From Escherichia coli (lineage in GTDB: Bacteria > Pseudomonadota > Gammaproteobacteria > Enterobacterales > Enterobacteriaceae), in assembly GCF_041886205.1 (NCBI RefSeq), contig NZ_CP169029.1: 64,000 nt of DNA; one strand, written 5' to 3'. This document shows positions 5,957 through 26,811 of the stretch, one piece after another. The position numbers and the translations under genes are program-made. How positions within the stretch are numbered: the stretch's first letter is position 1; the number at the start of each line of letters is the position of its first letter. The notes under the pieces are model-generated. The model ran no database searches. It was not told the DNA's origin and saw only the letters and a program-made list of their open reading frames with translations.

Positions 5957-8900
5957 TTAGTCAAACGGCGGTGGGGCCAGCACTTCACGATTACCGTTGT
6001 GCCCCTGTTCGCTGACAATCCCCTGCGCTTCCATCTGTTCGATAATACGCGCTGCACGGTTATAACCAATGCGGAACTGACGCTGTACGCCTGAAATTGA
6101 CGCTTTGCGTTTTTCAGTGACAAACTGCACCGCCTGATCGAACAACGGATCCAGTTCTTCAGCGCCATCGAAACCGCCCGCGCCACCTTCGCTTTCGCTG
6201 TCGGAGGTGATGCCATCAATATACTGTGGGCGACCACGCGCTTTCCAGTCCTGCACTACGGCATGAACTTCCTGATCGCGAACAAAAGCACCATGGACAC
6301 GTACCGGTAACGTGGAGTTCGGCCCAGAGTAGAGCATATCCCCCATACCCAGCAGTGATTCCGCACCAGCCTGATCAAGAATGGTACGTGAGTCAATCTT
6401 ACTGGATACGGTAAAGGCGATACGGGTCGGAATATTCGCTTTAATCAGACCAGTAATAACATCAACCGATGGACGCTGAGTTGCCAGTACGAGGTGGATA
6501 CCCGCGGCACGGGCTTTTTGCGCCAGACGTGCTATCAGCTCTTCCACTTTTTTACCTACCGTCATCATCAGGTCGGCAAATTCGTCCACCAACACCACAA
6601 TGTATGGTTCTTTTTTCAGCACCGGATGCTGGGCGTCCATACTGTCACCCGGCTTCCAGTACGGGTCTGGAATCGGACGCATCATGCGATCGGCTTCAGC
6701 AATTTTTTCGTTATAACCCGCCAGATTACGCACACCCAGCGCAGACATCAGTTTATACCGACGCTCCATCTCGTTAACACACCAGCGCAGCGCGTTGGCG
6801 GCATCTTTCATATCAGTAACGACTTCCGTTAACAGGTGCGGAATGCCTTCATACACCGAAAGCTCCAGCATTTTCGGGTCGATCATGATGAAACGCACAT
6901 CTTCTGGCTGTGCTTTATAAAGCATGCTCAGGATCATCGCGTTCACACCGACAGATTTACCGGAACCGGTAGTCCCCGCAACCAACAAGTGCGGCATTTT
7001 CGCCAGATCGGCAACCACCGGCTCACCGGCGATATCTTTACCCAGCACCACGGTTAATGGCGACGGATTATCGCGGAATTTGGCGTTATCCAAAACTTCG
7101 CGCAGATAAACGGTTTGTCGTTTTTTATTTGGTAACTCCAGACCTACATAGGGTTTGCCAGGAATAACTTCAACGACACGCACCGCCACCGTCGAAAGTG
7201 AACGGGCAAGGTCCCGTGACAAGTTAGAAATGCGCGCCGCTTTTACGCCAGGAGCCAGGTTAAGTTCAAAGCGAGTGATAACCGGCCCCGGAGAGTAATT
7301 GACGACATCGGCTTTAATACGGAAATCAGCCAGACGCGCTTCCACCAGACGAGCCATTTGTTCAAGCGCAAAGGTATCTACCGGCTCCACTTCGCTCGGC
7401 GGCGGTGTCAGCAAATCCAGAGAAGGCAGCGGCGTCGTCGGTTTATGCAACGGACGGCTGTCGCCATTACGCATCAACAGCGGATGAAGCAGGGTATCCT
7501 GCTGCTGCGGTGCAACCGGTTGTTGCGGCTGCTGATACTGCTGCTGCGGCGCAACTGGTTGTTGCGGCTGCTGATATTGCGGCTGTGGCGCAACCGGTTG
7601 TTGCGGCTGCTGATATTGTGGCTGCGGCGCAACCTGCTGTTGTGGCTGCTGATACTGCGGCTGCTGATATTGCTGCTGTGGCGCAACCGGCTGTTGTGGC
7701 TGCTGATACTGCTGCTGCGGTGCAACCGGTTGTTGCGGCTGCTGTACAGGTTCAACAATTGGCGTAAACAACGGTTCGTGTGGACCATCATCCAGCAACG
7801 CTTTCATTGGCGAAAATTCAAAATCATCCAGCGAGAACGGATTCGCCCCAGCCGGTTGTTCGCCGGAATAACGTTGTTGTTGAGTTTGCGCAAACTGACG
7901 AGCCAGTTCAGCCTCTGCCGCAGCATCTGCATCTTCTGCGTTTACGGGCACATCATGTTGATACTGTTCGCCATAGCGTTGCTGCTGTGTCTGGGCGAAC
8001 TGACGTGCCAGTTCATCCTGCTGCATCGCATCGATTTCATCATCGTTGTACTGATCGCCAGAATCGTACTGATTGCGCTGGGCTTCACGGGCTTTTTCTT
8101 CCGCCGCACGCTGTGAGGGCAGCTTAATACCGTAAGACGCCAGTTCACGACGAGTTGGCACGCGGATACGTTTCGGTCGTGGCAACTGCGGGCCAATCCC
8201 CTCTTTGACCTGCGGACGCGGTCCACCGCTATTTGCCAGACTGAAGACTGGCGCGGCAACGGTTGCGGCAGCCCCCGTCGCCAGTGTCGCTTTTTTCACG
8301 CCAGATGCCAGCGGAGAAACAGCGGCAGCGGTTTCTACTGGAGGTACTGCTGCAACAGAAGGTGCTTTCAGCGAAGATTTGATCGGTTCTGGTTCTTTAA
8401 CCGGTTCTGGAATCGGTTGATACCAGGCCGCAAGTTGTTCACGTTCACGGGCACGCTTCTCTTCCACTTCTTCAAAGTAGTAAAGCGGAGGACGCGCGGG
8501 TTTTGTCTCTTCTACAACGGGTTCAGGTTCCACAACAGGCTGCTGTTCAACAGGTTGCGGCTGTTGGTACAACGGTTCCTGAGCGGCTGGCTGCTGATAA
8601 GTTTGCTCAGTCTGGTATGTAGACTGTGGAGCAAAAGTGGATTGCTGCTCTTCGGCTTGCCAGGCGTTACCTGCCACCGGTTGTTCTGGCGCGGGGGCGT
8701 AATACGGTTGCTGAACAGGTTGTTCCGCCGCAGGAGCGTAGTAAGGTTGTTGCACAGGTTGTTCAGCTGCAGGCGCATAATACGGCTGCTGTGGCTGTAC
8801 AGGTTGTTGCAGCGGCTCATTATATTGCACTGCAGGCTGCGCATATTGTGGCTGCTGTGGGTAACCTTCCGGTGCAGGAGCAATAACCGGCTCTCCCGTT

Positions 8901-10000
8901 TGTGGACCCGGTACAGGCTGCCAGGCTACTGTAGGTTGCGAAGGTGGAACATCAACAGAGGCAACAGGCGGCGTATGAGTCACAGGTTCAACCGGCGCAG
9001 CCCAGCCTTGTGTCGCCGTGGTAGCAGCAGCTGCTACAGCGACAGGTTCGGTAATTGGCGCACCGTTTAATAATGGATCGTATTCGTCATATTCTGGCTG
9101 CGTTGCACGATTGCCCGAAAATAGGACGTCGTCCGGGTCGGCAGCCACACCGCGTGCAGTGTAGGTAATCTCTTCGTCATCATCCATCCGCTTACCGGAG
9201 AACAACGCAGCGTCTGTTTGCCGCCCCATCGGATTAATGAATTTTTCCGCCAACCGTTTACGACGCGCTAGCGCGCCGCGAAGAATACGGGCACGGCGTG
9301 ATTCATGCTGTTTGCCGTGGTTTTCATCTTCATACTCTTCGTCATCTTCATATTCATCTTCATCGACCCAGGTATCATCGCGACGGGTACGATTACTGGC
9401 GAAGGTGAGAATGTTTAAAATCCAGCCGCCGAGTTTTTCAGCAATGGTCACCCATGACCAACCGGTGAACAGCGTCAGGCCCGCAGCCCAAACGCAGAGC
9501 AGCGCAATAGTTCCCCCGCTACTGTGTAGCAGTGGTTGTAGCGTAGTACTTAGTAAGCTGCCAATGACGCCACCGGAGGCAAAATACCAGATATCGTCAG
9601 CGTTGATTGCCGCCAGACCACAGGAGGTAAGGATGAGCGCCAAAACGCCAATGATGCGTAGCGAAACGGCAAAATAATCAATGTATTCGTCGCTGGACTG
9701 ATGACGCCAGGCAAACCAACAACCGCCGACAATAATGACGGGAATGGTGTAAGCCATCACGCCAAAAATAAAGAACAGCGTATCTGCCAACCACGCACCG
9801 GGCATCCCACCTAAATTATGGATAGGTTCATGCCAGGCCGTTTGCGACCAGCTGGGGTCCGAAGGGTTAAAGCTTAGTAAGGCAGCCATCAACCAGACGG
9901 CAAACAGGACAATAAGGATCAGCAACGCCTCCAGAAGGCGGCGGCCGCTACTTAACTTTGTCAATGTGACTTCTTTGTCTTCAGTGTATTCCTGGCTCAA
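5957..10000 (-). CDS. ftsK: DNA translocase FtsK (membrane domain, Pro/Gln-rich linker, RecA-like motor, gamma domain)
   Basis: 1347-aa ORF; N-terminus [27 protein letters not shown]; Walker A GTTGSGKS; long PQ-rich linker encoded by tandem 39-bp repeats. Confidence 0.95.
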
Positions 10001-10078
10001 GAAAGGCTCTCCAGGTTACAGGCTTTTCCTGCCCGATGCTAAAACGGACAACAGTACCAGGTTACCCCAGTACTGTTG

Positions 10079-10094
10079 CTGTATGGATTAACAG
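10079..10094. promoter_or_regulatory. Candidate LexA (SOS) box in the ftsK promoter region
   Basis: CTGTatggattaACAG fits the CTGT-N8-ACAG LexA consensus; ftsK has a known SOS-inducible promoter (dinH). Confidence 0.5.
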
Positions 10095-10134
10095 GAGTGT
10101 AATCAAAATACGCCGATTTTGCACCTGTTCCGTG

Positions 10135-10629
10135 TTAGCGCGTCTTTATAACCAGACGATTACTCTGCTTGACTTCTTCCATAACAACGTATGTCCGTGT
10201 GTCATTGACGCCAGGCAGACGCAGCAGGGTTTCCCCCAGCAACTTACGGTAAGCTGACATATCCGGCACGCGTGTTTTCAACAGGTAGTCGAAATCACCA
10301 GATACTAAATGACACTCCTGAATTTCTTCAAGTTTTTGTACAGCGGTATTGAATTGTTCAAACACATCCGGTGCGCCACGATTCAGAGTAATCTCAACGA
10401 ATACCAGAAGTGATGCATCCAGATAATGGGGGTTCAGCAGCGCAGTATAGCCCTGAATAAACCCTTGTCTTTCCAGCCGACGCACACGCTCAAGGCACGG
10501 CGTTGGGGAAAGTCCCACACGTTTAGAAAGCTCGACGTTAGAAATACGCCCATCCTTTTGCAACTCATTAAGAATGTTACGATCGATACGGTCGAGATCT
10601 TTGCCAGGGCGCTTCTTGCTATCTACCAT
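10135..10629 (-). CDS. lrp: Leucine-responsive regulatory protein
   Basis: ORF track 10135..10683; start trimmed to MVDSKKRPGKDLDRIDRNIL to give the 164-aa Lrp (AsnC family HTH). Confidence 0.95.
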   Translation of the reverse strand: MVDSKKRPGKDLDRIDRNILNELQKDGRISNVELSKRVGLSPTPCLERVRRLERQGFIQGYTALLNPHYLDASLLVFVEITLNRGAPDVFEQFNTAVQKLEEIQECHLVSGDFDYLLKTRVPDMSAYRKLLGETLLRLPGVNDTRTYVVMEEVKQSNRLVIKTR

Positions 10630-11056
10630 TATTATTGTCTCTCTGTATTCCTTCCCTACTCCTGTCTGACCCTGAAACATCACTGTTCAGAGTCGCTACC
10701 CGTCACGATAGACCGAAATCATGAAGATTCACGGCGCGCAATGCCTGGGTCTACGGTGAGAAGACCGTTGCCTTGTGGCAGCTATCGACATCACGAATGG
10801 CGTCTGTCCACACCATACGTAGATTTCACTAGCACGGTAAACATGGTATTTACATGCATGGTTATGCGCATATAAGAATACTGTTTTTTTTCTTCCTCGA
10901 ATGTTTTCGCAAAACACCAGGGGATTGTCAAAGCAAAACATCGATTTTTAGTACAACATGCCAGATATTCATTAACAGGGGCGTTTATTCATCATTTAAT
11001 CGGCTTATAAAGCGTGAAATTTAAGTAGCAGAGGTGATAATGACGGGAGAATTTGA

Positions 11057-12139
<1,083 letters not shown>

Positions 12140-12166
12140 TTTTACAAATCAGTAACAAAAGTAAAG

Positions 12167-12206
12167 AAGGCGACACCATGCGACTATGGGTCGCCTTTAT
12201 TTTTTC
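12167..12206 (+). terminator. Intrinsic terminator after trxB
   Basis: aaggcgac...gtcgcctt stem followed by tattttttcc. Confidence 0.45.
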
Positions 12207-12261
12207 CCCGTTGTAACATTGCTCTGCAAATAATTCTGATAACTCACCTGCTAAGCGTGCA

Positions 12262-14028
12262 ATGAATAAATCCCGTCAAAAAGAGTTAACCCGCTGGTTA
12301 AAACAGCAAAGCGTCATCTCCCAACGTTGGCTGAATATTTCTCGTCTGCTGGGCTTTGTGAGCGGCATATTGATCATTGCCCAGGCCTGGTTCATGGCGC
12401 GAATTCTGCAACATATGATTATGGAGAATATTCCCCGTGAAGCCCTGCTGCTTCCCTTTACGTTACTGGTTCTGACCTTTGTACTGCGCGCATGGGTGGT
12501 CTGGTTACGCGAACGGGTGGGTTATCACGCCGGGCAGCATATCCGCTTTGCCATCCGCCGTCAGGTTCTCGACCGTCTGCAACAGGCAGGGCCAGCGTGG
12601 ATTCAGGGTAAACCTGCGGGGAGCTGGGCGACGTTGGTACTCGAGCAAATTGACGATATGCATGATTACTATGCACGCTACCTGCCGCAAATGGCGCTGG
12701 CAGTGTCGGTGCCGTTGCTGATTGTGGTGGCGATCTTCCCCTCTAACTGGGCTGCGGCGCTCATTCTGCTGGGTACAGCACCGTTAATTCCGTTGTTTAT
12801 GGCGCTGGTTGGAATGGGGGCTGCCGATGCTAACCGACGTAACTTTCTCGCTCTTGCTCGCTTAAGTGGGCATTTCCTCGATCGCCTGCGCGGCATGGAA
12901 ACACTGCGTATTTTTGGTCGTGGTGAAGCTGAAATTGAAAGTATTCGTTCTGCTTCGGAAGATTTCCGCCAACGGACAATGGAAGTGCTACGGCTGGCGT
13001 TTTTATCCTCCGGCATTCTCGAATTTTTTACCTCGCTGTCAATTGCTCTGGTGGCGGTCTACTTTGGTTTTTCCTATCTCGGCGAGCTGGATTTTGGTCA
13101 CTACGATACTGGCGTGACGCTGGCTGCGGGTTTTCTGGCCCTGATCCTTGCGCCAGAGTTTTTCCAGCCATTACGCGATCTCGGTACGTTTTATCATGCT
13201 AAAGCCCAGGCTGTTGGCGCAGCTGACAGTCTGAAAACGTTTATGGAAACCCCGCTCGCCCATCCGCAGCGCGGTGAGGCGGAATTAGCATTGACCGATC
13301 CGCTGACCATTGAGGCCGAGGATCTGTTTATCACGTCGCCGGAAGGTAAAACGCTGGCCGGACCGCTGAACTTTACTTTGCCAGCAGGCCAACGTGCAGT
13401 GTTGGTTGGTCGCAGCGGTTCAGGTAAAAGCTCACTGCTGAACGCGCTTTCTGGTTTTCTCTCATATCAGGGATCATTACGAATCAACGGGATAGAATTA
13501 CGCGATTTATCACCAGAATCATGGCGTAAACATCTCTCATGGGTTGGGCAAAATCCACAATTACCGGCAGCAACATTACGGGATAACGTACTACTGGCGC
13601 GACCTGATGCCAGCGAACAAGAATTACAAGCAGCGCTGGATAACGCCTGGGTCAGCGAGTTTCTACCGCTCCTGCCACAAGGCGTTGATACGCCTGTTGG
13701 CGACCAGGCTGCCCGCCTTTCCGTGGGGCAGGCGCAGCGCGTGGCGGTGGCCCGTGCGTTACTAAATCCCTGTTCGCTATTACTGTTGGATGAACCCGCT
13801 GCCAGCCTTGATGCTCACAGTGAACAGCGCGTAATGGAGGCGCTGAATGCCGCCTCTCTGCGCCAGACAACGTTAATGGTCACCCACCAGTTAGAAGATC
13901 TTGCTGACTGGGATGTCATTTGGGTTATGCAGGATGGCCGGATTATTGAGCAAGGACCTTACGCGGAATTAAGTGTGGCTGGTGGCCCATTCGCCACATT
14001 ACTGGCCCATCGTCAGGAGGAGATTTAA
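12262..14028 (+). CDS. cydD: ABC transporter (cysteine/glutathione export, cytochrome bd assembly) subunit CydD
   Basis: 588-aa ORF; TM domain plus ABC ATPase (GRSGSGKSS, LSVGQAQR); abuts cydC. Confidence 0.96.
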   Translation: MNKSRQKELTRWLKQQSVISQRWLNISRLLGFVSGILIIAQAWFMARILQHMIMENIPREALLLPFTLLVLTFVLRAWVVWLRERVGYHAGQHIRFAIRRQVLDRLQQAGPAWIQGKPAGSWATLVLEQIDDMHDYYARYLPQMALAVSVPLLIVVAIFPSNWAAALILLGTAPLIPLFMALVGMGAADANRRNFLALARLSGHFLDRLRGMETLRIFGRGEAEIESIRSASEDFRQRTMEVLRLAFLSSGILEFFTSLSIALVAVYFGFSYLGELDFGHYDTGVTLAAGFLALILAPEFFQPLRDLGTFYHAKAQAVGAADSLKTFMETPLAHPQRGEAELALTDPLTIEAEDLFITSPEGKTLAGPLNFTLPAGQRAVLVGRSGSGKSSLLNALSGFLSYQGSLRINGIELRDLSPESWRKHLSWVGQNPQLPAATLRDNVLLARPDASEQELQAALDNAWVSEFLPLLPQGVDTPVGDQAARLSVGQAQRVAVARALLNPCSLLLLDEPAASLDAHSEQRVMEALNAASLRQTTLMVTHQLEDLADWDVIWVMQDGRIIEQGPYAELSVAGGPFATLLAHRQEEI

Positions 14029-15750
14029 ATGCGCGCTTTGCTACCCTATCTGGCACTGTATAAACGTCATAAATGGATGTTAAGTCTTGGTATTGTGCTG
14101 GCAATTGTGACGCTGCTCGCCAGTATCGGTCTGTTGACACTTTCCGGCTGGTTCCTCTCTGCCTCAGCGGTTGCGGGGGTTGCCGGACTGTACAGCTTCA
14201 ACTATATGCTACCCGCTGCGGGCGTGCGTGGTGCAGCAATCACCCGTACTGCCGGGCGTTATTTTGAACGTCTGGTAAGTCACGACGCGACTTTCCGCGT
14301 GTTGCAGCATCTGCGCATTTACACCTTCAGCAAATTGTTGCCCCTCTCCCCTGCCGGACTGGCGCGCTATCGTCAGGGCGAATTGCTCAATCGCGTGGTG
14401 GCGGATGTTGATACGCTCGATCATCTTTACCTGCGCGTTATCTCGCCGCTGGTGGGCGCTTTTGTGGTGATTATGGTGGTGACAATCGGGTTAAGTTTCC
14501 TTGATTTCACCCTCGCCTTTACGCTGGGCGTCATTATGTTACTGACGCTTTTCCTGATGCCACCGCTGTTTTATCGTGCGGGAAAAAGCACCGGGCAAAA
14601 TCTGACTCATCTTCGCGGACAGTATCGCCAACAACTGACGGCCTGGCTGCAAGGGCAAGCTGAGCTGACCATTTTTGGTGCCAGCGATCGTTATCGCACG
14701 CAACTAGAGAATACAGAAATTCAATGGCTGGAAGCGCAACGCCGTCAATCTGAACTGACCGCATTGTCGCAAGCGATAATGCTGCTCATTGGCGCGTTAG
14801 CGGTGATCCTGATGCTGTGGATGGCGTCTGGCGGCGTTGGCGGCAATGCTCAACCCGGCGCGTTAATTGCCCTGTTTGTCTTCTGCGCGTTAGCCTCGTT
14901 TGAAGCACTGGCACCAGTAACGGGTGCATTTCAGCATCTGGGGCAAGTCATTGCCTCTGCCGTTCGGATCACTGATTTAACGGATCAAAAACCGGAGGTC
15001 ACCTTCCCTGATACCCAAACTCGTGTTGCCGATCGCGTTTCGCTGACATTACGGGATGTTCAGTTCACTTATCCGGAGCAATCCCAACAGGCACTTAAAG
15101 GGATTTCTCTTCAGGTAAACGCCGGGGAACATATTGCGATTCTCGGGCGAACCGGATGCGGCAAATCAACACTGTTACAACTGCTGACCCGCGCTTGGGA
15201 CCCGCAACAGGGCGAGATTTTGCTTAACGATAGTCCCATAGCCAGCCTGAATGAAGCGGCTCTACGACAGACCATCAGCGTTGTTCCTCAGCGAGTGCAT
15301 CTGTTTAGCGCCACGCTGCGTGATAATCTGTTACTCGCCTCGCCTGGCAGTAGTGATGAGGCTCTGGCGGAGATCTTACGTCGCGTTGGTCTGGAGAAGC
15401 TGCTCGAGGATGCAGGTCTCAACAGTTGGTTAGGTGAAGGCGGACGCCAGCTCTCCGGTGGTGAACTGCGCCGTCTGGCTATCGCTCGTGCGCTGTTACA
15501 TGATGCGCCACTGGTGTTGCTGGATGAACCTACCGAAGGCTTAGATGCCACAACCGAAAGCCAGATCCTTGAATTGCTTGCAGAAATGATGCGTGAGAAA
15601 ACGGTGTTAATGGTCACCCATCGACTTCGCGGACTCTCTCGTTTCCAACAAATAATAGTGATGGACAACGGGCAAATTATTGAGCAAGGTACTCACGCAG
15701 AGCTGCTTGCCAGACAGGGGCGTTATTACCAGTTCAAGCAGGGTTTGTAA
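14029..15750 (+). CDS. cydC: ABC transporter subunit CydC
   Basis: 573-aa ORF starting one base after the cydD stop; ABC ATPase motifs (GRTGCGKST, LSGGELRR). Confidence 0.96.
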   Translation: MRALLPYLALYKRHKWMLSLGIVLAIVTLLASIGLLTLSGWFLSASAVAGVAGLYSFNYMLPAAGVRGAAITRTAGRYFERLVSHDATFRVLQHLRIYTFSKLLPLSPAGLARYRQGELLNRVVADVDTLDHLYLRVISPLVGAFVVIMVVTIGLSFLDFTLAFTLGVIMLLTLFLMPPLFYRAGKSTGQNLTHLRGQYRQQLTAWLQGQAELTIFGASDRYRTQLENTEIQWLEAQRRQSELTALSQAIMLLIGALAVILMLWMASGGVGGNAQPGALIALFVFCALASFEALAPVTGAFQHLGQVIASAVRITDLTDQKPEVTFPDTQTRVADRVSLTLRDVQFTYPEQSQQALKGISLQVNAGEHIAILGRTGCGKSTLLQLLTRAWDPQQGEILLNDSPIASLNEAALRQTISVVPQRVHLFSATLRDNLLLASPGSSDEALAEILRRVGLEKLLEDAGLNSWLGEGGRQLSGGELRRLAIARALLHDAPLVLLDEPTEGLDATTESQILELLAEMMREKTVLMVTHRLRGLSRFQQIIVMDNGQIIEQGTHAELLARQGRYYQFKQGL

Positions 15751-15791
15751 GCTATTATTGAACGATCCGACTTGCGTGGAGTTTTGCGGTC

Positions 15792-16496
15792 ATGCGCCTG
15801 GTTCAGCTTTCTCGCCATTCAATAGCCTTCCCTTCCCCGGAAGGCGCATTACGTGAGCCTAACGGCCTGCTGGCACTGGGGGGCGATCTTAGCCCTGCGC
15901 GCCTGTTAATGGCTTACCAGCGTGGTATTTTTCCGTGGTTTTCTCCAGGCGACCCCATCCTCTGGTGGTCGCCCGATCCTCGCGCGGTGCTTTGGCCTGA
16001 ATCACTGCATATCAGCCGTAGTATGAAGCGATTTCATAAACGCTCGCCCTATCGTGTCACGATGAATTACGCTTTTGGTCAGGTCATTGAAGGCTGTGCC
16101 AGCGATCGCGAAGAAGGAACCTGGATCACGCGTGGCGTGGTCGAAGCCTACCATCGCCTTCACGAACTCGGTCATGCCCACTCCATTGAAGTCTGGCGTG
16201 AAGATGAGCTTGTCGGCGGTATGTACGGCGTGGCCCAGGGAACGCTATTTTGTGGCGAGTCCATGTTCAGCCGGATGGAAAATGCGTCTAAAACGGCGCT
16301 TCTGGTATTCTGTGAGGAATTTATCGGTCATGGCGGTAAGCTTATCGACTGCCAGGTCCTTAACGATCACACAGCGTCGCTTGGTGCCTGCGAAATTCCC
16401 CGCCGGGATTACCTTAATTATCTCAATCAAATGCGCCTCGGACGATTGCCGAATAATTTCTGGGTACCACGATGCTTGTTTTCACCACAAGAATGA
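15792..16496 (+). CDS. aat: Leucyl/phenylalanyl-tRNA--protein transferase
   Basis: 234-aa ORF recognisable as Aat; conserved position between cydC and infA. Confidence 0.95.
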
Positions 16497-16777
16497 ATGT
16501 TTTCGGCACATTTCTCCCCAGAGTGTTATAATTGCGGTCGCAGAGTTGGTTACGCTCATTACCCCGCTGCCGATAAGGAATTTTTCGCGTCAGGTAACGC
16601 CCATCGTTTATCTCACCGCTCCCTTATACGTTGCGCTTTTGGTGCGGCTTAGCCGTGTGTTTTCGGAGTAATGTGCCGAACCTGTTTGTTGCGATTTAGC
16701 GCGCAAATCTTTACTTATTTACAGAACTTCGGCATTATCTTGCCGGTTCAAATTACGGTAGTGATACCCCAGAGGAT

Positions 16778-16999
<222 letters not shown>

Positions 17000-17038
17000 T
17001 TGTTTTACCGCCTGATGGGCGAAGAGAAAGAACGAGTA

Positions 17039-17070
17039 AAAGGTCGGTTTAGCCGGCCTTTTTATTTTGT
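17039..17070 (+). terminator. Intrinsic terminator after infA
   Basis: aaaaggtcgg...ccggcc stem followed by tttttatttt. Confidence 0.4.
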
Positions 17071-17252
17071 GATATGTATGAAGTACTTTGGAAGTATAAG
17101 TCCATAACTTGTCTCGATGTAGATATACTGCACAAGTTGTTTACAGTATGAGCAAACAATAATTATCATTAAAATTCTTCTTGACCGTTTTACTCCAACT
17201 CCCTATAGTAGCGCCCCGTTGCCACCCATGAGGTTTGGCAGCAAAACAATTT

Positions 17253-17340
17253 GGTGAGGTGTCCGAGTGGCTGAAGGAGCACGCCTGGAAAGTGTGTATA
17301 CGGCAACGTATCCGGGGTTCGAATCCCCGCCTCACCGCCA
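17253..17340 (+). tRNA. serW: tRNA-Ser (anticodon GGA), long variable arm, encoded CCA end
   Basis: GGTGAGGTGTCCGAGTGGCTGAAGGAGCACGCCTGGAAAGTGTGTATACGGCAACGTATCCGGGGTTCGAATCCCCGCCTCACCGCCA: class II tRNA cloverleaf with a GGA anticodon loop and T-arm GGTTCGAATCC. Confidence 0.95.
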
Positions 17341-17352
17341 TATTTAAAGAAG

Positions 17353-17380
17353 AGCTCGTACGAAAGTACGAGCTTTTTTT
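17353..17380 (+). terminator. Intrinsic terminator after serW
   Basis: agctcgtac-gaaa-gtacgagct perfect hairpin followed by eight T. Confidence 0.6.
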
Positions 17381-17383
17381 TCG

Positions 17384-17531
17384 CATTTTATCTGCCTGTA
17401 CGGCAGTGAACATGGTGGGCGGGTGGAGTATGTTACCAGTGAATTTCTAAGCTGCCTGTACGGCAGTGAACGCCAACTTTCACAGCCTTTGCAAGATTGT
17501 TCCTTTCTAAGCTGCCTGTACGGCAGTGAAC
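17384..17531 (-). CRISPR. Orphan type I-F CRISPR mini-array: 3 repeats, 2 spacers of 32 nt, no adjacent cas genes
   Basis: Minus-strand 28-nt repeat GTTCACTGCCGTACAGGCAGCTTAGAAA (the E. coli/Yersinia subtype I-F repeat) at 17504-17531 and 17444-17471, plus a degenerate terminal copy at 17384-17411. Spacers at 17472-17503 and 17412-17443 are exactly 32 nt each. Confidence 0.85.
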
Positions 17532-17743
17532 TCAAATACTACACGTTTAGCCCGTTGTTAATAAAGCAAAACCATCTCATTTTCCTGCTGTCACCCTTTT
17601 TTATCCTTACCTTCCAGCAGCACTAATTATCAACAACTTACCTTCACCTCCAAAAATAGGGTTTTCACCGTTCCACCCCATAAATAAAAAGTCCGCAACC
17701 TCTTTCGAGATTACGGACTTGACCAACCTACCTAACAATCAGA

Positions 17744-20020
17744 TTAATGCGCTGCTTCCGCCTTGTGCTTTTGTGCACTCTGGAATCCGTAAGTCAGCTC
17801 ATTTTTCTCTTTATCCAGCGCGACGGTGACCTGACCGCCGTCCACCAGCGAACCAAACAGCAGTTCGTTGGCGAGCGGTTTTTTCAGGTTGTCCTGGATG
17901 ACACGCGCCATCGGACGTGCGCCCATTGCCCGGTCGTAACCTTTCTCGGCCAGCCAGTTACGCGCTTCCTGGCTCACTTCCAGAGAAACACCTTTCTGAT
18001 CCAGCTGAACCTGCAACTCGACGATGAATTTATCCACCACCTGATGAATCACGTCGGTTGACAAATGATCAAACCAGATAATGTTGTCGAGACGGTTACG
18101 GAATTCCGGTGTAAAGATCTTCTTGATCTCTTCCATCGCATCGGTGCTGTTATCCTGGTGGATAAGACCAATGGATTTGCGCTCAGTTTCCCGTACCCCG
18201 GCGTTGGTGGTCATCACCAGCACCACGTTACGGAAGTCCGCTTTGCGTCCGTTGTTATCGGTCAGCGTACCGTTGTCCATCACCTGCAACAGAATATTGA
18301 ACACGTCCGGATGCGCTTTCTCGATTTCGTCCAGCAGCAGCACCGCATGTGGATGCTTGATTACCGCATCGGTCAGCAAACCGCCCTGATCAAAACCAAC
18401 GTATCCCGGAGGCGCACCAATCAGACGGCTGACGGTATGGCGTTCCATATACTCGGACATATCAAAGCGCAGAAGCTCAATGCCCAACGCTTTCGAAAGC
18501 TGTACCGTCACCTCTGTTTTCCCGACCCCGGTAGGACCGGCAAACAGGAACGAACCGACCGGTTTATGTTCGTGACCTAAACCTGCACGCGCCATCTTAA
18601 TGGCTTCAGTCAGCGCCTCAATGGCTTTATCCTGACCGAAGACCAGCATTTTCAGGCGATCGCCGAGGTTTTTCAGGGTATCGCGGTCACTCTGAGAAAC
18701 ACTCTTCTCTGGAATGCGTGCAATACGGGCCACCACGGACTCAATATCCGCCACATTTACGGTTTTCTTGCGTTTGCTTACCGGCATCAGGCGTGCGCGA
18801 GCGCCCGCTTCGTCGATAACATCAATCGCTTTATCCGGCAGATGACGATCGTTAATGTATTTCACCGCCAGCTCTACCGCCGCACGCACCGCTTTTGCGG
18901 TATAACGCACGTCGTGGTGCGCTTCATACTTCGGTTTCAGGCCATTGATGATTTGAACAGTTTCTTCGATCGACGGTTCAGTAATATCAATTTTCTGGAA
19001 GCGACGCGCCAGAGCACGGTCTTTCTCGAAAATGTTGCTGAACTCCTGATAGGTTGTCGAACCAATTACGCGAATTTTACCGCTGGAGAGCAACGGTTTG
19101 ATCAGGTTAGCCGCATCGACCTGACCACCAGACGCTGCACCCGCACCGATAATGGTGTGGATCTCATCAATAAACAGGATGCTGTTAGTGTCCTGCTCCA
19201 GCTGCTTGAGCAACGCTTTAAAACGTTTTTCAAAGTCGCCGCGATATTTTGTGCCCGCTAACAGAGAACCGATATCGAGAGAATAAATCGTACAGTCAGC
19301 CATCACTTCCGGCACATCACCCTGAACAATTCGCCAGGCAAGACCTTCTGCAATCGCGGTTTTACCGACACCAGACTCCCCCACCAGCAGCGGGTTGTTT
19401 TTACGGCGACGGCAGAGAACCTGAATAGCACGCTCCAGCTCTTTCTCACGACCAATCAGTGGGTCGATTCCGCCCACACGCGCAAGCTGGTTCAGGTTCG
19501 TCGTGAAATTCTCCATACGTTCCTCCCCACCAGCTTGTTCTTCGCTGTTTGGCTGGCTGCCAGGATCAGAAGACTGTGTCGGCTCGTCTTTACGCGTGCC
19601 ATGAGAGATAAAGTTCACCACATCGAGACGGCTGACTTCATGTTTACGCAACAGATATGCCGCCTGCGACTCCTGTTCGCTAAAGATAGCGACCAGAACG
19701 TTTGCACCGGTAACCTCATTGCGACCGGAGGACTGGACATGGAAGACCGCACGTTGCAGTACACGCTGAAAACTCAGCGTCGGCTGTGTATCGCGCTCCT
19801 CTTCACTGGCAGGCAGAACGGGTGTGGTTTGTTCAATAAAGGCTTCCAGTTCCTGACGGAGCGCAACCAAATCCACAGAACACGCTTCCAGCGCCTCCCG
19901 GGCAGATGGGTTACTGAGCAGCGCCAGTAACAAGTGCTCGACGGTCATAAACTCATGACGGTGCTCGCGCGCTCTGGCGAAAGCCATATTTAAACTGAGT
20001 TCCAGTTCTTGATTGAGCAT
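17744..20020 (-). CDS. clpA: ATP-dependent Clp protease ATP-binding subunit ClpA
   Basis: ORF track 17744..20035; start trimmed to [24 protein letters not shown] (758 aa); two AAA+ modules ([16 protein letters not shown]). Confidence 0.96.
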
Positions 20021-20050
20021 AGGCACCTCCCCCAATTTTTATGCCTGCAT

Positions 20051-20371
20051 TCAGGCTTTTTCTAGCGTACACAGCAATGGATGCTCATTCTCCCTCGCGT
20101 ACTTGTTCACCATCGCCACTTTGGTTTCTGCAACCTCGGCGGTAAAGACTCCGCAAATGGCCTTCCCCTGGTAGTGAACAGCGAGCATCAATTGCGTTGC
20201 ACGTTCTACATCATAAGAAAAGAATTTTTGTAACACGTCAATAACAAACTCCATCGGAGTGTAATCATCATTGACTAATATCACTTTATACATAGATGGC
20301 GGTTTTAGCGCGTCGCGAACTTTTTCTTCCGCCAGTTGATCAAAGTCCAGCCAGTCGTTCGTTTTACCCAT
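20051..20371 (-). CDS. clpS: ClpAP adaptor protein ClpS
   Basis: 106-aa ORF directly upstream of clpA on the same strand. Confidence 0.96.
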
Positions 20372-20693
20372 TGTCAGTTATCATCTTCGGTTACGGTTAT
20401 CGGCAGAACGCCCTGCCGCTGACAAGAGCTTATTTGCCTGACCAATCTACTCCATATGATAGATAACTATCATCTATCGTTGGCATCAGCGACATCTGTC
20501 ACATTCCTGTCAATAGCGTTAACTGCTTCAAATTTTTGATTCATACCTGCCCCCTGGCCCCTGTCAAATGCTTGACGGCTCGCCCTAATTCTCTAAATTG
20601 TATTTCTAGAGTTGGCGAGGTTTTGAACAGCCCCCTCTCTGACCCCGGTTTATTCCATCTTACTTGTATAAGATTTGCGAAGGATGTCGAAGC

Positions 20694-20918
20694 ATGGAAA
20701 AGGGTACTGTTAAGTGGTTCAACAATGCCAAAGGGTTTGGTTTCATCTGCCCTGAAGGCGGCGGCGAAGATATTTTCGCTCATTATTCCACCATTCAGAT
20801 GGATGGTTACAGAACGCTAAAAGCTGGACAATCGGTTCAGTTTGATGTCCACCAGGGGCCAAAAGGCAATCACGCCAGTGTTATTGTGCCCGTCGAAGTA
20901 GAAGCGGCAGTCGCATAG
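20694..20918 (+). CDS. cspD: Cold-shock-domain protein CspD (stationary-phase replication inhibitor)
   Basis: ORF track 20664..20918; start trimmed to MEKGTVKWFNNAKGFGFI (74 aa); RNP1 motif KGFGFI. Confidence 0.95.
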   Translation: MEKGTVKWFNNAKGFGFICPEGGGEDIFAHYSTIQMDGYRTLKAGQSVQFDVHQGPKGNHASVIVPVEVEAAVA

Positions 20919-20952
20919 CTCTTCTGTCTCATTGTGTACATCCTAAAGGCAA

Positions 20953-20982
20953 AATGCCAGCCCGATCGGCTGGCATTTTTAT
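20953..20982. terminator. Bidirectional intrinsic terminator between convergent cspD and macB
   Basis: aaaatgccagcc-cgat-cggctggcatttt palindrome flanked by A and T runs. Confidence 0.5.
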
Positions 20983-20990
20983 CTCAAAAA

Positions 20991-22937
20991 TTACTCTCGT
21001 GCCAGAGCATCTACTGGATCCAGTCGTGCCGCATTTCGTGCGGGTAACCAGCCAAATAAAATCCCGGTGACCGTCGAGCAGAGAAACGCCAGCAGCAGCG
21101 CCAACGGTGAAAAACCAATCTCCCAGCCGGGTAAGAAAAGCTGTAAGGTGAAAGCAATTAACAGTGACAGTGTTATTCCCAACGCGCCACCGACCAGACA
21201 AACCAGTACGGCTTCGATCAGGAACTGTTGCAAAACATCGCTTGCTCGCGCACCTACAGCCATGCGAATGCCAATTTCCCGCGTCCGCTCGGTCACTGAC
21301 ACCAGCATAATATTCATTACACCAATACCGCCCACCACCAGCGAAATCACCGCCACCAGCGTCAGAAACAGTTGTAAAGTACGTGTGGTCTTTTCAACAG
21401 TTTTCAAGACGCCGTCCATGTTCCAGGTAAAGAAATCCTTCTTACCGTGGCGCAGTGAAAGTAAACGCGTGAGTTGCTGTTCCGCCTCGGCGCTGTCAAA
21501 TCCTTCTTTTACCCTGACAGTAATGGAGTTAAGCCACGACTGGCCCATAACTCGCCCGGACATCGTGCTGTAAGGTAGCCAGACACGCAGCACTTTACTG
21601 CTACCAAACATCGACTGTTTTTCTTCCGCCACACCAATGACTCTGGCGGGCATATTGCCGACCAGAATCACCTCGCCAACCACATCGGCTTTATGGGGGA
21701 AAAGCTGGCGGCGAGTATTACTGTCGAGAACCACGACCTGCGCACGACCGTTCAGCTGTTCCTGATTAAAGGTGTTTCCTTCACTGAAGGTCATGCCATA
21801 GACATTAAAATAATCGCCGCTCACGCCATTGGCACTGGCAGCAACATCAACATTGTTATAACGCAGGCGCAGGTTTTGCGAGACGGCAGGTGTGGCTGAA
21901 GCGACCCACGGTTGTTTTTGGATGGCGATTAAGTCGTCGTACTTCAGCGCCTGCTGATATTGCGGATCGTCATCGCCAAAATCTTTCCCGGGATAGACAT
22001 CAATAGTATTCGTACCAATAGAACGAATATCCGCCAGCACCATTTGTTTGGCGGCGTCGCCCACCACGACAATGGAAACCACCGACGCAATACCGATTAT
22101 AATCCCCAGCATGGTCAGTAAAGTACGCATTTTATTCGCTGCCAGCGCCCGCCATGCCATCGTCAGCGCCTCGTTAAAACCGCTGACAAACTGCCGCCAG
22201 CCAGACACCGTGTTGACAACAAGCTCTGTCCCGCCAGCAACATTCACTTTTTCAATGGCGGGAGGATTGCGCACAATTTCGCCGTCGCGAATTTCGATCA
22301 CCCGCTCGGCCTGAGCAGCAACCTGCGGATCGTGGGTGACGATAATCACCGTATGCCCGCGATCGCGCAGCTGATGCAGGATCGCCATCACCTCTTCGCC
22401 AGAATGGCTGTCCAGTGCGCCGGTTGGTTCATCGGCAAGAATTACCTGACCGCCGTTCATCAATGCCCGCGCGATGCTGACGCGCTGTTGCTGACCACCC
22501 GAAAGCTGTGCCGGATAATACTCTGTACGGTCTTCCAGCCCCAGTCGTTGCAGTAACTCCTGGGCGCGAAGCAGCCGCTGTTTCCGCTCAAGACCGGCAT
22601 AGACGGCGGGTACTTCAACGTTCTGCTCGGCGGTTAAATGCGAAAGCAAATGGTAACGCTGGAAAATAAAGCCGAAATGCTCGCGGCGCAGTTGCGCCAG
22701 CGCATCGGCGTCCAGTGTGGCAACATCCTGACCGGCGACGCGATAGGTGCCGCTGGTGGCCTTATCCAGACAGCCGAGAATATTCATCAGGGTCGATTTA
22801 CCGGAACCCGAAGCGCCAACAATCGCTACCATCTCACCGGCATAAATATCGAGGCTGATGCCCTTCAGCACCTCAACCTGCTCATCACCGGCAGGATAGC
22901 TGCGACGAATATCCTTTAATTCGAGCAAAGGCGTCAT
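20991..22937 (-). CDS. macB: Macrolide export ABC transporter ATP-binding/permease protein MacB
   Basis: 648-aa ORF; N-terminal ABC ATPase ([17 protein letters not shown]) fused to a FtsX-like permease. Confidence 0.96.
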
Positions 22938-24049
22938 TGTGCAGCTCCTGGTTTGGCCTCACCAATCACCACTTCATCGCCCGCTTCCAGCCCTTTGACA
23001 ATCTCAACATCGGTATCGTTACGTGCGCCAATCGTCACTTCACGCTCGCGTGTTTCACCATTACGTAACAATTTGACTTTATAACGATTATCGCCAACCG
23101 GATCGCCTAACGCCGACAGAGGGATCGTCAGCACATTTTTCACATCGGTGAGCTGAATATGCACTTGCGCAGTCATATCCAGCCGCAGCAAACCATTGGG
23201 GTTGGGGACTTCAAAACGGGCGTAATAGAAAATAGCGTCGTTAACCTTTTCCGGCGTCGGTAGTACATCCTTGATTTGCCCCTCGTAGCGCGTCAGTGGA
23301 TCGCCAAGTACCGTAAACCAGGCTTTTTGCCCTGGCTTCAGGTGGATTACATCCGCTTCAGAAACCTGCGCTTTTACCAGCATGGTGCTCATATCTGCCA
23401 GCGTCAGAATGTTCGGTGCTTGTTGTGCGGCAATCACCGTCTGGCCTTGCAGAGTGGTGATTTGCGTGACTTCCCCGGCTATCGGGGCAACGATGCGAGT
23501 GTAATCGAGATTGGTTTTAGCCGTATCGAGAGAAGCCTGATTGCGCTTGATTTGCGCGTCAATGGTGCCAATTTGCGCCTGTTTCACAGCCATCTCCGTC
23601 GCGGCGGTGTCGAGATCCTGCTGTGAAACCGCCTGCGTTTGTGCCAGACGTTGCTGACGGGAATACGTCACCCGCGCCAGTTTCAGCTCCGCTTCCGCCT
23701 GCTGCCGCTGCGCGCGTAGCTCCATCAGCGTTGCTTCGACCTCCTTGATCTGGTTTTCAGCCTGTTCAGGATCAATGACCCCTAAAAGCTGGTCTTTTTT
23801 TACTTTATCGCCAATCGCCACCGACAGCGTTTTCAACTGACCGCTGACCTGCGCGCCCACGTCAACCTTACGCAGCGCGTCCAGCTTTCCGGTCGCCAGC
23901 ACGCTTTGCTGTAAATCACCGGGGCGCACAATCAGTGTCTGATAAGTCGGCACGGGTGCGTTAAGAATTCTCCATAACGTAATCAGTCCGGCGATGACTA
24001 TCACCAGCGCAATAACGTAACGCTTCTTCACGGTTTTCCGCTTTTTCAT
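22934..24049 (-). CDS. macA: Macrolide export periplasmic adaptor (membrane fusion protein) MacA
   Basis: ORF track 22934..24076; start trimmed to [22 protein letters not shown] (371 aa); overlaps the macB start by 4 nt. Confidence 0.94.
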
Positions 24050-24163
24050 AAATATTCTGAATACTCCATATGCCAATCCGGGTCATTAACTTCAACGAAA
24101 TATCAACAAACCCCTAAAATTTACGTTAGTAATCACACTATTGATGTTTGGTTAAGATACGCA

Positions 24164-25156
24164 ATGGTGAAATCGACGTCATGTATAACCATTGATTTCA
24201 TGAATATGTCGCAGCTAACTGAACGGACCTTTACGCCATCTGAATCTCTCAGCAGCCTGTCACTTTTTCTTAGTCTGGCACGTGGACAGTGTCGGCCGGG
24301 TAAATTCTGGCATCGCCGTAGTTTTCGCCAGAAATTTTTGCTGCGCTCGTTGATTATGCCGCGTTTAAGCGTTGAGTGGATGAACGAACTTTCCCACTGG
24401 CCTAATCTCAATGTATTGTTAACGCGCCAGCCGCGACTGCCTGTGCGTCTGCATCGCCCTTACCTTGCGGCGAATCTTAGCCGTAAGCAATTGCTGGAGG
24501 CGTTACGTTACCATTATGCGTTACTCCGCGGATGTATGTCGGCGGAAGAATTCAGCTTATATTTGAATACCCCCGGGCTGCAACTGGCGAAGCTGGAAGG
24601 CAAAAACGGCGAGCAGTTCACGCTTGAGCTGACCATGATGATCTCAATGGATAAAGAAGGTGACAGCACAATCTTGTTCCGCAACAGCGAAGGTATTCCT
24701 CTGGCAGAGATCACGTTTACCCTGTGTGAATATCAGGGGAAAAGAACGATGTTTATTGGCGGACTGCAAGGCGCAAAATGGGAAATTCCACATCAGGAAA
24801 TCCAGAATGCGACGAAAGCCTGCCACGGGCTATTTCCCAAACGCCTCGTGATGGAAGCGGCCTGTCTGTTTGCCCAACGTTTGCAGGTAGAGCAGATTAT
24901 TGCCGTCAGCAATGAAACGCATATTTACCGCAGCCTGCGTTATCGCGATAAAGAAGGCAAGATCCACGCTGATTACAACGCTTTCTGGGAATCGGTTGGC
25001 GGCGTATGTGATGCTGAACGCCATTACCGCCTTCCAGCACAGATAGCACGAAAAGAGATTGCCGAAATCGCCAGTAAAAAACGGGCTGAATACCGTCGGC
25101 GCTATGAGATGCTCGACGCTATTCAGCCACAAATGGCCACGATGTTTCGCGGTTAA
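24164..25156 (+). CDS. ybjX: VirK/YbjX family (DUF535) protein
   Basis: 330-aa ORF divergent from macA. Family assignment is from memory of K-12 ybjX; the exact start is uncertain (alternative Met codons at 24203 and 24209). Confidence 0.8.
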   Translation: MVKSTSCITIDFMNMSQLTERTFTPSESLSSLSLFLSLARGQCRPGKFWHRRSFRQKFLLRSLIMPRLSVEWMNELSHWPNLNVLLTRQPRLPVRLHRPYLAANLSRKQLLEALRYHYALLRGCMSAEEFSLYLNTPGLQLAKLEGKNGEQFTLELTMMISMDKEGDSTILFRNSEGIPLAEITFTLCEYQGKRTMFIGGLQGAKWEIPHQEIQNATKACHGLFPKRLVMEAACLFAQRLQVEQIIAVSNETHIYRSLRYRDKEGKIHADYNAFWESVGGVCDAERHYRLPAQIARKEIAEIASKKRAEYRRRYEMLDAIQPQMATMFRG

Positions 25157-26811
25157 TCCGCGCGACCGCGCGCCAGCCACAGCACGCGTGAGAACATTTT
25201 TTTCAGCAGCGTCGGTACGGAGTCCACACCACGACGTCCTGCCTCCATTGCCACTTCAATGGCAAGATCGGGTTTGGAAGAGCGATGGATCGCTTTCGAG
25301 ATAATTTTGCGTAGATTCATCGGTACATTTTCCGGGATTTGCGCCACGCGGTGGAACACATCGGAAAATCCCTGGCGATACATAAAATGTTCCATATCCA
25401 GCGCCGGTAACGCCGTTAAATGTTCTCGTTCGGCTTCCCGATCGTTATTCAACAGGCTGCGTACCGTAGCGGCATATTTCTTCCCTGCTTCATCGCCATC
25501 GACCAGTACATGCCATTCAATCCCGATTCGGCGGGCAAATTTAACCAGTGGCTTTAGCCCGGACTGGGCAAACTCAATGACCTTGATCCCTTCGGCATCA
25601 AAATGATGTCCGCACTGACGCGCCAGTTCATTGATAACCCAGGTTTCCGTTTCCCCTTCCACCAGCAACCAGCAGCGTGCAAACAGCGATGACGGACGGT
25701 TAAAACGAATGTGAAAGGATATGCGTCGGCTATCTTCGGTACTCAAGCCACTCGGCCCCAGACGCCAGGCGGCAACGCGCGAGGACTCACGTACCAGTCG
25801 GCAAACATGCTCTACCGGCGTTAACGAAAGCAACTCACCCGAGTTGGTGGTGGCAATGCGCTGCAATGGCAGAAGATTCAACAGATGCCAGGCAACTGAA
25901 AGCATAATGGGGTGTAAACGGGTTTCTGGATCTTCGATCAGCAACAATGGACGGGCGTCTTTATCCAGTCGCAATGTGCCTTTTGCCTGCAACAAAGTAG
26001 CAAACAGGCCGAGCAAAATAACCCGATACGAGCGCCCACCAGGTCGGTCAATCATCCGGTTGATGATATCCAGATAGCGCCAGCTTCGTTGCTCATTGCT
26101 GGCTCGCCGCCGCATTAAACGATATCGCGCCTGTCCGGCCCCCTGCTCAGAGAAATAATGCTCAAGCAGCTGTACCATTGCGGAAAGTCCCTGACGAATC
26201 TGCCCATCAGAGAGATTTTGCGGATGTGAGGATAACTCACGGGCGAGGAAATCGAGCTGGCGCGCGGTGACTTCCACATTAGGGACATTTGGCACCGTGC
26301 CGTTACGAATACGGCGCATAAAACGGGCATCACGCAAGCGCAGCACCGGCATTAAACGCACCAGATGGCGTGCCTGATCGTTAATATCCTCGACATCAAT
26401 CGGATGTCCGTCTTTATCGAGAAAACTGCGCAGTGTCATCACGCTGCCGTCTTCCGCACTCTCCCCTTCCAGACGATAAAAAATACGGTGATAGCCATCG
26501 GTGCATGGCGTCCAGCACGCTTCCAGCGGCCGATAACGGCGAACCCGATGTCGGCCTGGCAGCGATTCGCGGAAGGTCAAAATAATATGCAGATGATGTT
26601 CTCGCCCGTTGATATCTCCCGGCGGGAACCAGAAATCGTCGCGCTCAAAATGGTAGAGATCTGATTCTGGCGATAGCAGCAGGGTTAAGGCGTCCAGCAA
26701 GCTGGATTTACCCCACGCGTTCTCCCCAATCAGGACGTTGTTTTGTTCCAGCATCAACGACAAACGGTTGATACCGCGAAAACCCACAATTTCAACGCGC
26801 TCAAGAATCAT
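25153..26811 (-). CDS. ybjD: OLD-family ATPase/TOPRIM nuclease homolog (class 1, single gene)
   Basis: 552-aa ORF; N-terminal ABC-like ATPase (MILERVEIVGFRGINRL...GENAWGKSSLLDAL) and a C-terminal TOPRIM-like acidic segment (CWLLVEGETETWV). Confidence 0.88.
   Translation of the reverse strand: MILERVEIVGFRGINRLSLMLEQNNVLIGENAWGKSSLLDALTLLLSPESDLYHFERDDFWFPPGDINGREHHLHIILTFRESLPGRHRVRRYRPLEACWTPCTDGYHRIFYRLEGESAEDGSVMTLRSFLDKDGHPIDVEDINDQARHLVRLMPVLRLRDARFMRRIRNGTVPNVPNVEVTARQLDFLARELSSHPQNLSDGQIRQGLSAMVQLLEHYFSEQGAGQARYRLMRRRASNEQRSWRYLDIINRMIDRPGGRSYRVILLGLFATLLQAKGTLRLDKDARPLLLIEDPETRLHPIMLSVAWHLLNLLPLQRIATTNSGELLSLTPVEHVCRLVRESSRVAAWRLGPSGLSTEDSRRISFHIRFNRPSSLFARCWLLVEGETETWVINELARQCGHHFDAEGIKVIEFAQSGLKPLVKFARRIGIEWHVLVDGDEAGKKYAATVRSLLNNDREAEREHLTALPALDMEHFMYRQGFSDVFHRVAQIPENVPMNLRKIISKAIHRSSKPDLAIEVAMEAGRRGVDSVPTLLKKMFSRVLWLARGRAD

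Follow-up and report, generated by a model that had tools for sequence, protein, structure and literature searches.

It is clear that the three short repeats lying between serW and clpA in this 64,000-nucleotide stretch of Escherichia coli DNA (hereafter the window, meaning the whole stretch analysed) make up the orphan type I-F CRISPR array known in E. coli since 2010 and designated CRISPR3 by Touchon and Rocha and CRISPR4.1-2 by the Mojica group. Both of its spacers match I-F cas genes, and the array is very probably a latent anti-cas device. The support assembled here comes from the anatomy of the array, its strand, the homology of its leader, the hairpins of its repeats, the matches of its spacers to cas genes with accompanying PAMs, the absence of cas genes from the window and the separation of spacers and cas operons across the population. 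Transcription, interference and priming of the array are taken from the literature, namely from two reviews (PMC8616872; PMC5972030).

Much of the background to this locus was laid out by Touchon and Rocha (2010; PMC2886076), who placed CRISPR3 and CRISPR4 between clpS and aat with tRNA-Ser in between, found that spacers 1 and 2 of CRISPR3, with which those of the window agree, correspond to the Ypest-subtype (I-F) proteins Cas1 and Cas3, and reported at least one such spacer in every E. coli without I-F cas genes. The same study described the terminal repeat as conserved, proposed an 'anti-CRISPR' function for CRISPR3, and argued that anti-cas spacers persist where other spacers get deleted (PMC2886076). 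The single cas-less array received the name CRISPR4.1-2 in Almendros 2014 (PMC3903273), and two reviews from the Mojica laboratory (PMC8616872; PMC5972030) credit Almendros 2016 with showing that the array is constitutively expressed, that it interferes with plasmids bearing I-F cas genes, and that it gives rise to primed adaptation.

A repeat finder identified three type I-F repeats on the minus strand, starting at 17384, 17444 and 17504 and thus spaced by 60 + 60 nt (Table 1). Judged against the Rfam model CRISPR-DR4 (RF01317, the I-F repeat model for repeat cluster 4, gathering score 35), repeats 1 and 2 are identical in sequence and equal in score (E 4e-10 each), and the terminal repeat falls under the gathering score (E 7.5e-4), its nucleotides 1-20 following the consensus and its last 8 nt reading ATAAAATG in place of CTTAGAAA. 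With at most three mismatches the I-F repeat occurs twice in the window, against 0.00 times in 100 shuffles, and no fourth copy was found in the 64 kb when up to 7 mismatches were allowed. Folding gave a hairpin of -8.6 kcal/mol for each of the three repeats, all of which retain the 5-bp Cas6f hairpin, and both crRNAs could therefore be matured, with the 8-nt handle drawn from repeat 1 or 2 and the 3' hairpin from repeat 2 or 3; the divergence of the terminal repeat is limited to the 8 nt that no crRNA needs. The locus combines the repeat match, a 60-nt period, two different 32-nt spacers, an AT-rich leader, a degenerate repeat at the opposite end and CC PAMs, as a type I-F array does. The original prediction, which had described two perfect repeats and one degenerate copy enclosing two 32-nt spacers at 17384-17531, is borne out by the repeat finder, by Rfam and by the sequence itself, and a careful alignment leaving only one recognisable repeat, which would have spoken against it, is countered by the three copies.

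Table 1. Coordinates of the array and of its neighbours in the window
Feature	Position	Strand	Description
Repeat 1, leader-proximal	17504..17531	-	Perfect 28-nt I-F repeat GTTCACTGCCGTACAGGCAGCTTAGAAA; Rfam CRISPR-DR4 50.1 bits
Spacer B, newest	17472..17503	-	32 nt; crRNA sense GGAACAATCTTGCAAAGGCTGTGAAAGTTGGC; anti-cas3f
Repeat 2	17444..17471	-	Perfect 28-nt I-F repeat GTTCACTGCCGTACAGGCAGCTTAGAAA; Rfam CRISPR-DR4 50.1 bits
Spacer A, oldest	17412..17443	-	32 nt; crRNA sense TTCACTGGTAACATACTCCACCCGCCCACCAT; anti-cas1f
Terminal trailer-side repeat, degenerate	17384..17411	-	GTTCACTGCCGTACAGGCAG then ATAAAATG; Rfam 29.7 bits
Array leader	17532..17688	-	AT-rich; homologous to leaders of I-F+ strains
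clpA intrinsic terminator	17689..17720	-	Terminator scan: 14-bp stem then T tract
serW = tRNA-Ser(GGA)	17253..17340	+	ARAGORN; Rfam tRNA 52.2 bits
serW terminator hairpin	17346..17381	+	Terminator scan; ends 2 nt before degenerate repeat
clpA ORF	17744-20035	-	
infA	16781-16999		

Across positions 8899-26000 the window is 99.96% identical to and collinear with E. coli XJ5.2, from whose annotation the gene names at the locus were transferred and in which the order is trxB-cydDC-aat-infA-tRNA-Ser followed by clpA-clpS-cspD-macBA. That the array occupies the clpA-infA location of CRISPR3/4, between serW and clpA, had been proposed beforehand and is confirmed by ARAGORN, by the open reading frames and by this collinearity. 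The 157-nt leader is 61.8% AT, compared with 49.1% in the window; the 45 nt adjoining repeat 1 are identical across five loci, and the clpA-side intergenic region as a whole shows 87-97% identity among the loci compared. The strand of the Rfam hits, the side on which the leader lies and the end at which the degenerate repeat sits all agree, and the array is read on the minus strand, in the order leader, repeat 1, spacer B, repeat 2, spacer A, degenerate repeat 3 and serW terminator. The clpA terminator stands between clpA transcription and the leader. A sigma-70 scan of the leader at default thresholds returned no site, and a looser promoter scan reached at most 8 of 12 matches, its sole weak candidate being TTTGGA-17-GATAAT at approximately 17654-17626. 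In the same window two sRNA genes of ordinary enterobacterial kinds lie over the Rfam gathering threshold, STnc130 at 2306-2440 (+, 140 bits) and RybB at 60980-61058 (+, 104 bits).

Within the window the array is an orphan, flanked by serW and clpA and not by cas1f, cas2-3f, csy1-3 or cas6f. Searches of the 64 kb for I-F cas genes, by tblastn with Cas6f, Csy3, Csy2, Csy1, Cas3f and Cas1f of ATCC 43896 and by blastn with the whole I-F operon, returned the two spacers and nothing else. The claim that no cas genes lie in the window is upheld by both searches, and the adjacent I-F cas genes that would have spoken against an orphan array are absent from it, serW and clpA standing in their place. 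In I-F+ strains the order is infA, array, serW, cas6f-csy3-csy2-csy1-cas3f-cas1f, array and clpA, such that the serW terminator is followed by cas6f, where in the window it is followed by the array. The roughly 89 nt from the infA terminator to the serW promoter (17064-17152) are without counterpart in I-F+ strains, which carry at the same spot about 1 kb made up of the CRISPR4.2 array and its leader. A leftover of this infA-side array in the window was considered and ruled out, the sequence at 17064-17152 being unrelated.

Spacer A matches cas1f of B2-type operons (such as those of IHE3034 and FDAARGOS_1284) at 31 of 32 positions, with the mismatch at position 4, and cas1f of the B1-type operon (ATCC 43896) at 30 of 32, with mismatches at positions 4 and 10; the PAM is CC in both. 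Spacer B matches cas3f of the B1-type operon (ATCC 43896) at 31 of 32 positions, with a mismatch at position 19 and a CC PAM, and the B2-type gene (IHE3034) at 29 of 32, with TC in the PAM position. The best matches of either spacer to the cas genes have an E value of 6e-6 in 28 Gb, and 1.5 kb separates the protospacer in cas1f from that in cas3f, the two being on opposite strands of the operon. For I-F in E. coli the PAM is 5'-CC on the crRNA-like strand, at the leader-proximal end, and it has been given as GG following the protospacer on the other strand (PMC3506596).

No perfect match to spacer A or spacer B occurs among the 241 cas operons of the RefSeq complete genomes. In a scan of one genome per species, spacer A proved to match perfectly, beside a CC PAM, in the cas1f gene of a strain labelled 'E. 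coli E69' (CP089930.1, locus 924-955); over the part compared, this gene and its flank share only about 83-85% identity with the B1 and B2 types, and they lie beside a 37-repeat array. The E69-type allele is missing from all 241 I-F+ RefSeq genomes. For spacer B, a metagenome scan disclosed no perfect cas3f protospacer among 11 loci, which proved to be orphan arrays or B1-type cas3f genes with the same position-19 mismatch. Escape of present-day cas alleles from the anti-cas spacers by mutation was also considered and is unsupported: B1 and B2 differ at 1-2 positions per protospacer, and escape was rejected because these differences do not exceed the overall B1/B2 divergence of about 8%.

Phage, plasmid and chromosomal targets had all been entertained for these spacers at the outset. 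A search of 72,556 plasmids and of 50,697 phage records with the concatenated spacers gave chance-level partial matches only (E at least 5); what the spacers match, with CC PAMs, is cas1f and cas3f. An IUPAC pattern scan of IMG/VR with both spacers returned 0 and 2 loci, the latter both chromosomal in appearance, one holding a cas1f gene plus array and the other an orphan array. The first of these UViGs contains cas1f, an array and clpA-side sequence, and the second a K-12-type orphan array; both are probably chromosomal flanks of prophage or misclassified contigs. In IHE3034, phage-type genes (terminase, capsid and primase) are situated just past clpS. For mini-arrays such as this one, a comparison of the spacers with cas genes should come before any appeal to phage targets.

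The anti-cas effect of the orphan array is said to have been tested experimentally by Almendros et al. 2016 (Nat Microbiol 1:16081). In the mechanism that we favor, the array would be transcribed from its own clpA-side leader, constitutively according to the reviews, into a short pre-crRNA from the minus strand that would be inert in a cell without Cas6f or Csy proteins. Were an I-F cas operon to enter, whether by conjugation, by transduction or by recombination at the same locus, the incoming Cas6f would cut at the three intact hairpins and the Csy complex would take up two guides, directed at cas1f and cas3f, each with a 5'-CC PAM beside its target. Cas2-3 would then degrade its own coding DNA, primed adaptation could add further anti-cas spacers, and the net outcome would be that a functional I-F system cannot establish.

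In this strain the array should still be effective. By established I-F rules the seed comprises positions 1-5 and 7-8, and every sixth base is unpaired. With mismatch positions and PAMs read in this way, a target preference is predicted in which the array should act best against B1-type operons through spacer B, with its single PAM-distal mismatch, and against E69-type operons through spacer A, which is perfect; it should act poorly against the common B2-type, for which the mismatch of spacer A falls in the seed and spacer B meets a TC PAM and 3 mismatches, and where priming is still plausible. Several observations count against an anti-cas role. None of the 241 RefSeq operons gives either spacer a perfect match, spacer A is mismatched at seed position 4 with respect to both B1 and B2, and spacer B is poor against B2. 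Arrays have drifted, as seen in the G17A change of K-12, in the 4-nt deletion within spacer A, and in arrays from which A has been lost or B is missing. Further, no strong promoter emerged from the scans, and the separation from cas genes is partly structural.

That separation was surveyed in 5,426 complete genomes of E. coli, of which 241 have the I-F cas operon, in single copy and on the chromosome in all and never on a plasmid; in the three I-F+ loci that were read, it sits between clpA and serW. The operons fall into two sequence types: 39 are at least 99% identical to that of ATCC 43896 and 202 are 90-95% identical to it. Spacer B was found in 761 genomes at 762 places, of which 520 are perfect copies in cas-less arrays; the remaining 241 genomes have matches with 1 or 3 mismatches, a number that equals that of the I-F+ genomes. 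Spacer A was found in 2,578 genomes at 2,582 places, and once the 241 cas1f protospacers are taken off, approximately 2,337 remain as cas-less arrays that carry it or a close variant. No more than 1 genome holds spacer B together with its target, and at most 4 hold spacer A together with its target. The separation of spacers and cas operons is thus nearly complete, and it is partly structural, the two being alternative and phylogenetically non-independent haplotypes of one locus. In nearly all RefSeq records (PGAP) the orphan mini-arrays are without an annotated feature, and few are labelled CRISPR; automated surveys based on annotation will miss them.

The cas-less arrays are not uniform. K-12 and O157:H7 carry spacer A alone, in the same form or as a 1-nt variant; in K-12 the spacer is changed at position 6 and the terminal repeat bears G17A, which disrupts the hairpin (-1.4 kcal/mol, where the window has -8.6). 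Among the orphan arrays read, those of the window, O157 and K-12 and most of those from metagenomes end in ATAAAATG, two metagenomic ones differing by one base each; the longer end …GGCAGATAAAATG is that of the same arrays except the K-12-type, which add G17A. Further haplotypes occur in metagenome and IMG/VR contigs, which have spacer B alone, spacers C, B and A' (A with a 4-nt deletion), or spacers D and A. Spacers C and D are directed at cas3f with CC PAMs, D being perfect against the B1-type allele, and the protospacers of A, B, C and D all fall inside 2.2 kb of the 8.3-kb operon.

Placement of the additions at the leader end matches expectation for genuine acquisitions. These arrays share a backbone of spacer A plus trailer, and the leader-end additions therefore suggest that Cas1 and Cas2-3 were once active in lineages now cas-less. 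The differences among arrays may instead reflect differential loss of spacers from a longer ancestral array. We regard it as possible, if somewhat short of probable, that the array is a dated record of failed invasions and not one ancient scar, a proposal that extends published ideas and introduces no new mechanism. Its basis is that spacer A has its only perfect protospacer in the E69-type allele and that B, C and D would have been drawn from B1-like alleles. If true, cas-less lineages would repeatedly have met, primed on and expelled different I-F operons, and array haplotypes could serve to trace the cas-F alleles that were in circulation and their timing.

The rival that survives best is that the array is a neutral fossil, in which self-acquired anti-cas spacers caused autoimmunity, selection then favored deletion of the cas operon, and an inert scar was kept by inertia. 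Self-targeting is said to have been named as the cause of cas gene loss in Diez-Villasenor 2010, and Vercoe 2013 reportedly supports loss driven by self-targeting in principle. Recurrence of the ATAAAATG terminal repeat and of its junction with the serW terminator in orphan arrays, with two single-base variants, speaks for one ancestral event, and both the mismatches of the spacers to all extant RefSeq cas alleles and the signs of decay in the arrays (the K-12 hairpin mutation, the 4-nt deletion in A, and the loss of A or B) are as a fossil would have them. Both theories are stated in PMC3630108, where self-targeting is also shown to delete genomic regions. However, the additions of B, C and D to the A-plus-trailer backbone need Cas1 and Cas2-3, and later transient encounters fit them better than one ancient event does; Touchon and Rocha argue from the persistence of these spacers where others are deleted (PMC2886076), and the reviews report an experimental anti-cas effect (PMC8616872; PMC5972030). 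We therefore consider the fossil explanation unlikely as a full account, and the original prediction's suggestion of a relic is retained as a rival and not as the best-supported reading, the leader-end additions and the reported effect fitting it less well. The two readings are compatible, in that the fossil may account for the origin of the array and the anti-cas role for its maintenance.

Another explanation, excluded at the locus itself and to which we attach very little credence for the genome as a whole, is that the three repeats are the end of a functional array whose cognate I-F cas genes lie elsewhere in the genome. The view is limited to 64 kb, and P. aeruginosa has isolated arrays far from cas genes (PMC13142298). 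Against this, both flanks of the array are in the window, as serW and clpA, without cas genes; the operon is single-copy and chromosomal throughout the I-F+ genomes and at clpA-serW in the loci read; genomes bearing the spacers almost never hold their targets; and a cell with both would target itself. An array transcript that works without Cas proteins, as an antisense or small regulatory RNA, deserves next to no credence: a hairpin-rich transcript would be stable and constitutive expression is reported in the reviews (PMC8616872; PMC5972030), but the near-full-length spacer matches in E. coli outside arrays are to I-F cas genes only, which the window lacks, no Rfam sRNA family reaches threshold over the array, and spacer content differs between strains. 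A role independent of interference had also been suggested beforehand; the role that has been reported makes use of the incoming I-F interference machinery (PMC8616872; PMC5972030; proposed in PMC2886076), and the suggestion finds no support.

On the anti-cas reading, an array kept so that the cell stays free of a matching CRISPR-Cas system bears on the rarity of I-F in E. coli (241 of 5,426 genomes). Several small details are new, including the perfect protospacer of the E69-type allele, the allele-specific pattern of mismatches and PAMs, and the haplotypes [A], [B][A], [B], [C][B][A'] and [D][A], and population-genetic work on anti-cas arrays could draw on them. Further small additions are the terminal repeat with its Cas6f hairpin and the conservation of the leader with cas-linked arrays.

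A separate element was observed in the I-F+ loci themselves. In the 330-nt cas3f-csy1 intergenic region of ATCC 43896 (locus 9401-9470) a pair of degenerate units resembling the I-F repeat lies on the strand opposite to the cas genes, some 30 nt from each other: CACTGCCGTTGGCAGCTTAGAAA (22.7 bits) and CTGCCGTACAGGCAGCT (21.8 bits) by Rfam DR4. The stretch of about 75 nt also occurs in other I-F+ loci, is more conserved between B1 and B2 than the surrounding intergenic sequence, and resembles a mini-array or a crRNA-like element; among the loci compared, its 'spacer' had no target.

Among known systems the closest is CRISPR3 / CRISPR4.1-2, from which the array of the window does not differ materially: both have the same locus, the same 28-nt repeat and modified terminal repeat, the same two spacers against Cas1 and Cas3, and the same lack of I-F cas genes. 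The window represents the two-spacer [cas3f][cas1f] haplotype of approximately 520 of 5,426 genomes, whereas CRISPR3 of K-12 and O157 has one spacer, and the hairpin of the terminal repeat is intact in the window but not in K-12 CRISPR3. The cas-linked CRISPR4.1 of LF82, UTI89, IHE3034 and ATCC 43896 resembles the array in its repeat, its clpA-side position and its orientation, and its leader in an intergenic identity of 87-91% with the 45 nt beside the array identical. It differs in having 4-37 repeats, spacers of plasmid and phage type, a terminal repeat that ends in …CAGTATTCACA, and the cas1f-cas6f operon downstream; the window, unlike these strains, is without the operon and without the infA-side array (CRISPR4.2) and its leader. 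Orphan arrays of other species, such as CRISPR2 of E. faecalis, the orphaned or isolated I-F arrays of P. aeruginosa and RliB of L. monocytogenes, likewise persist without adjacent cas genes and can be put to use in trans by compatible Cas proteins. Those arrays carry spacers that are directed at mobile elements or are unassigned, whereas in the window every spacer targets the cognate cas genes.
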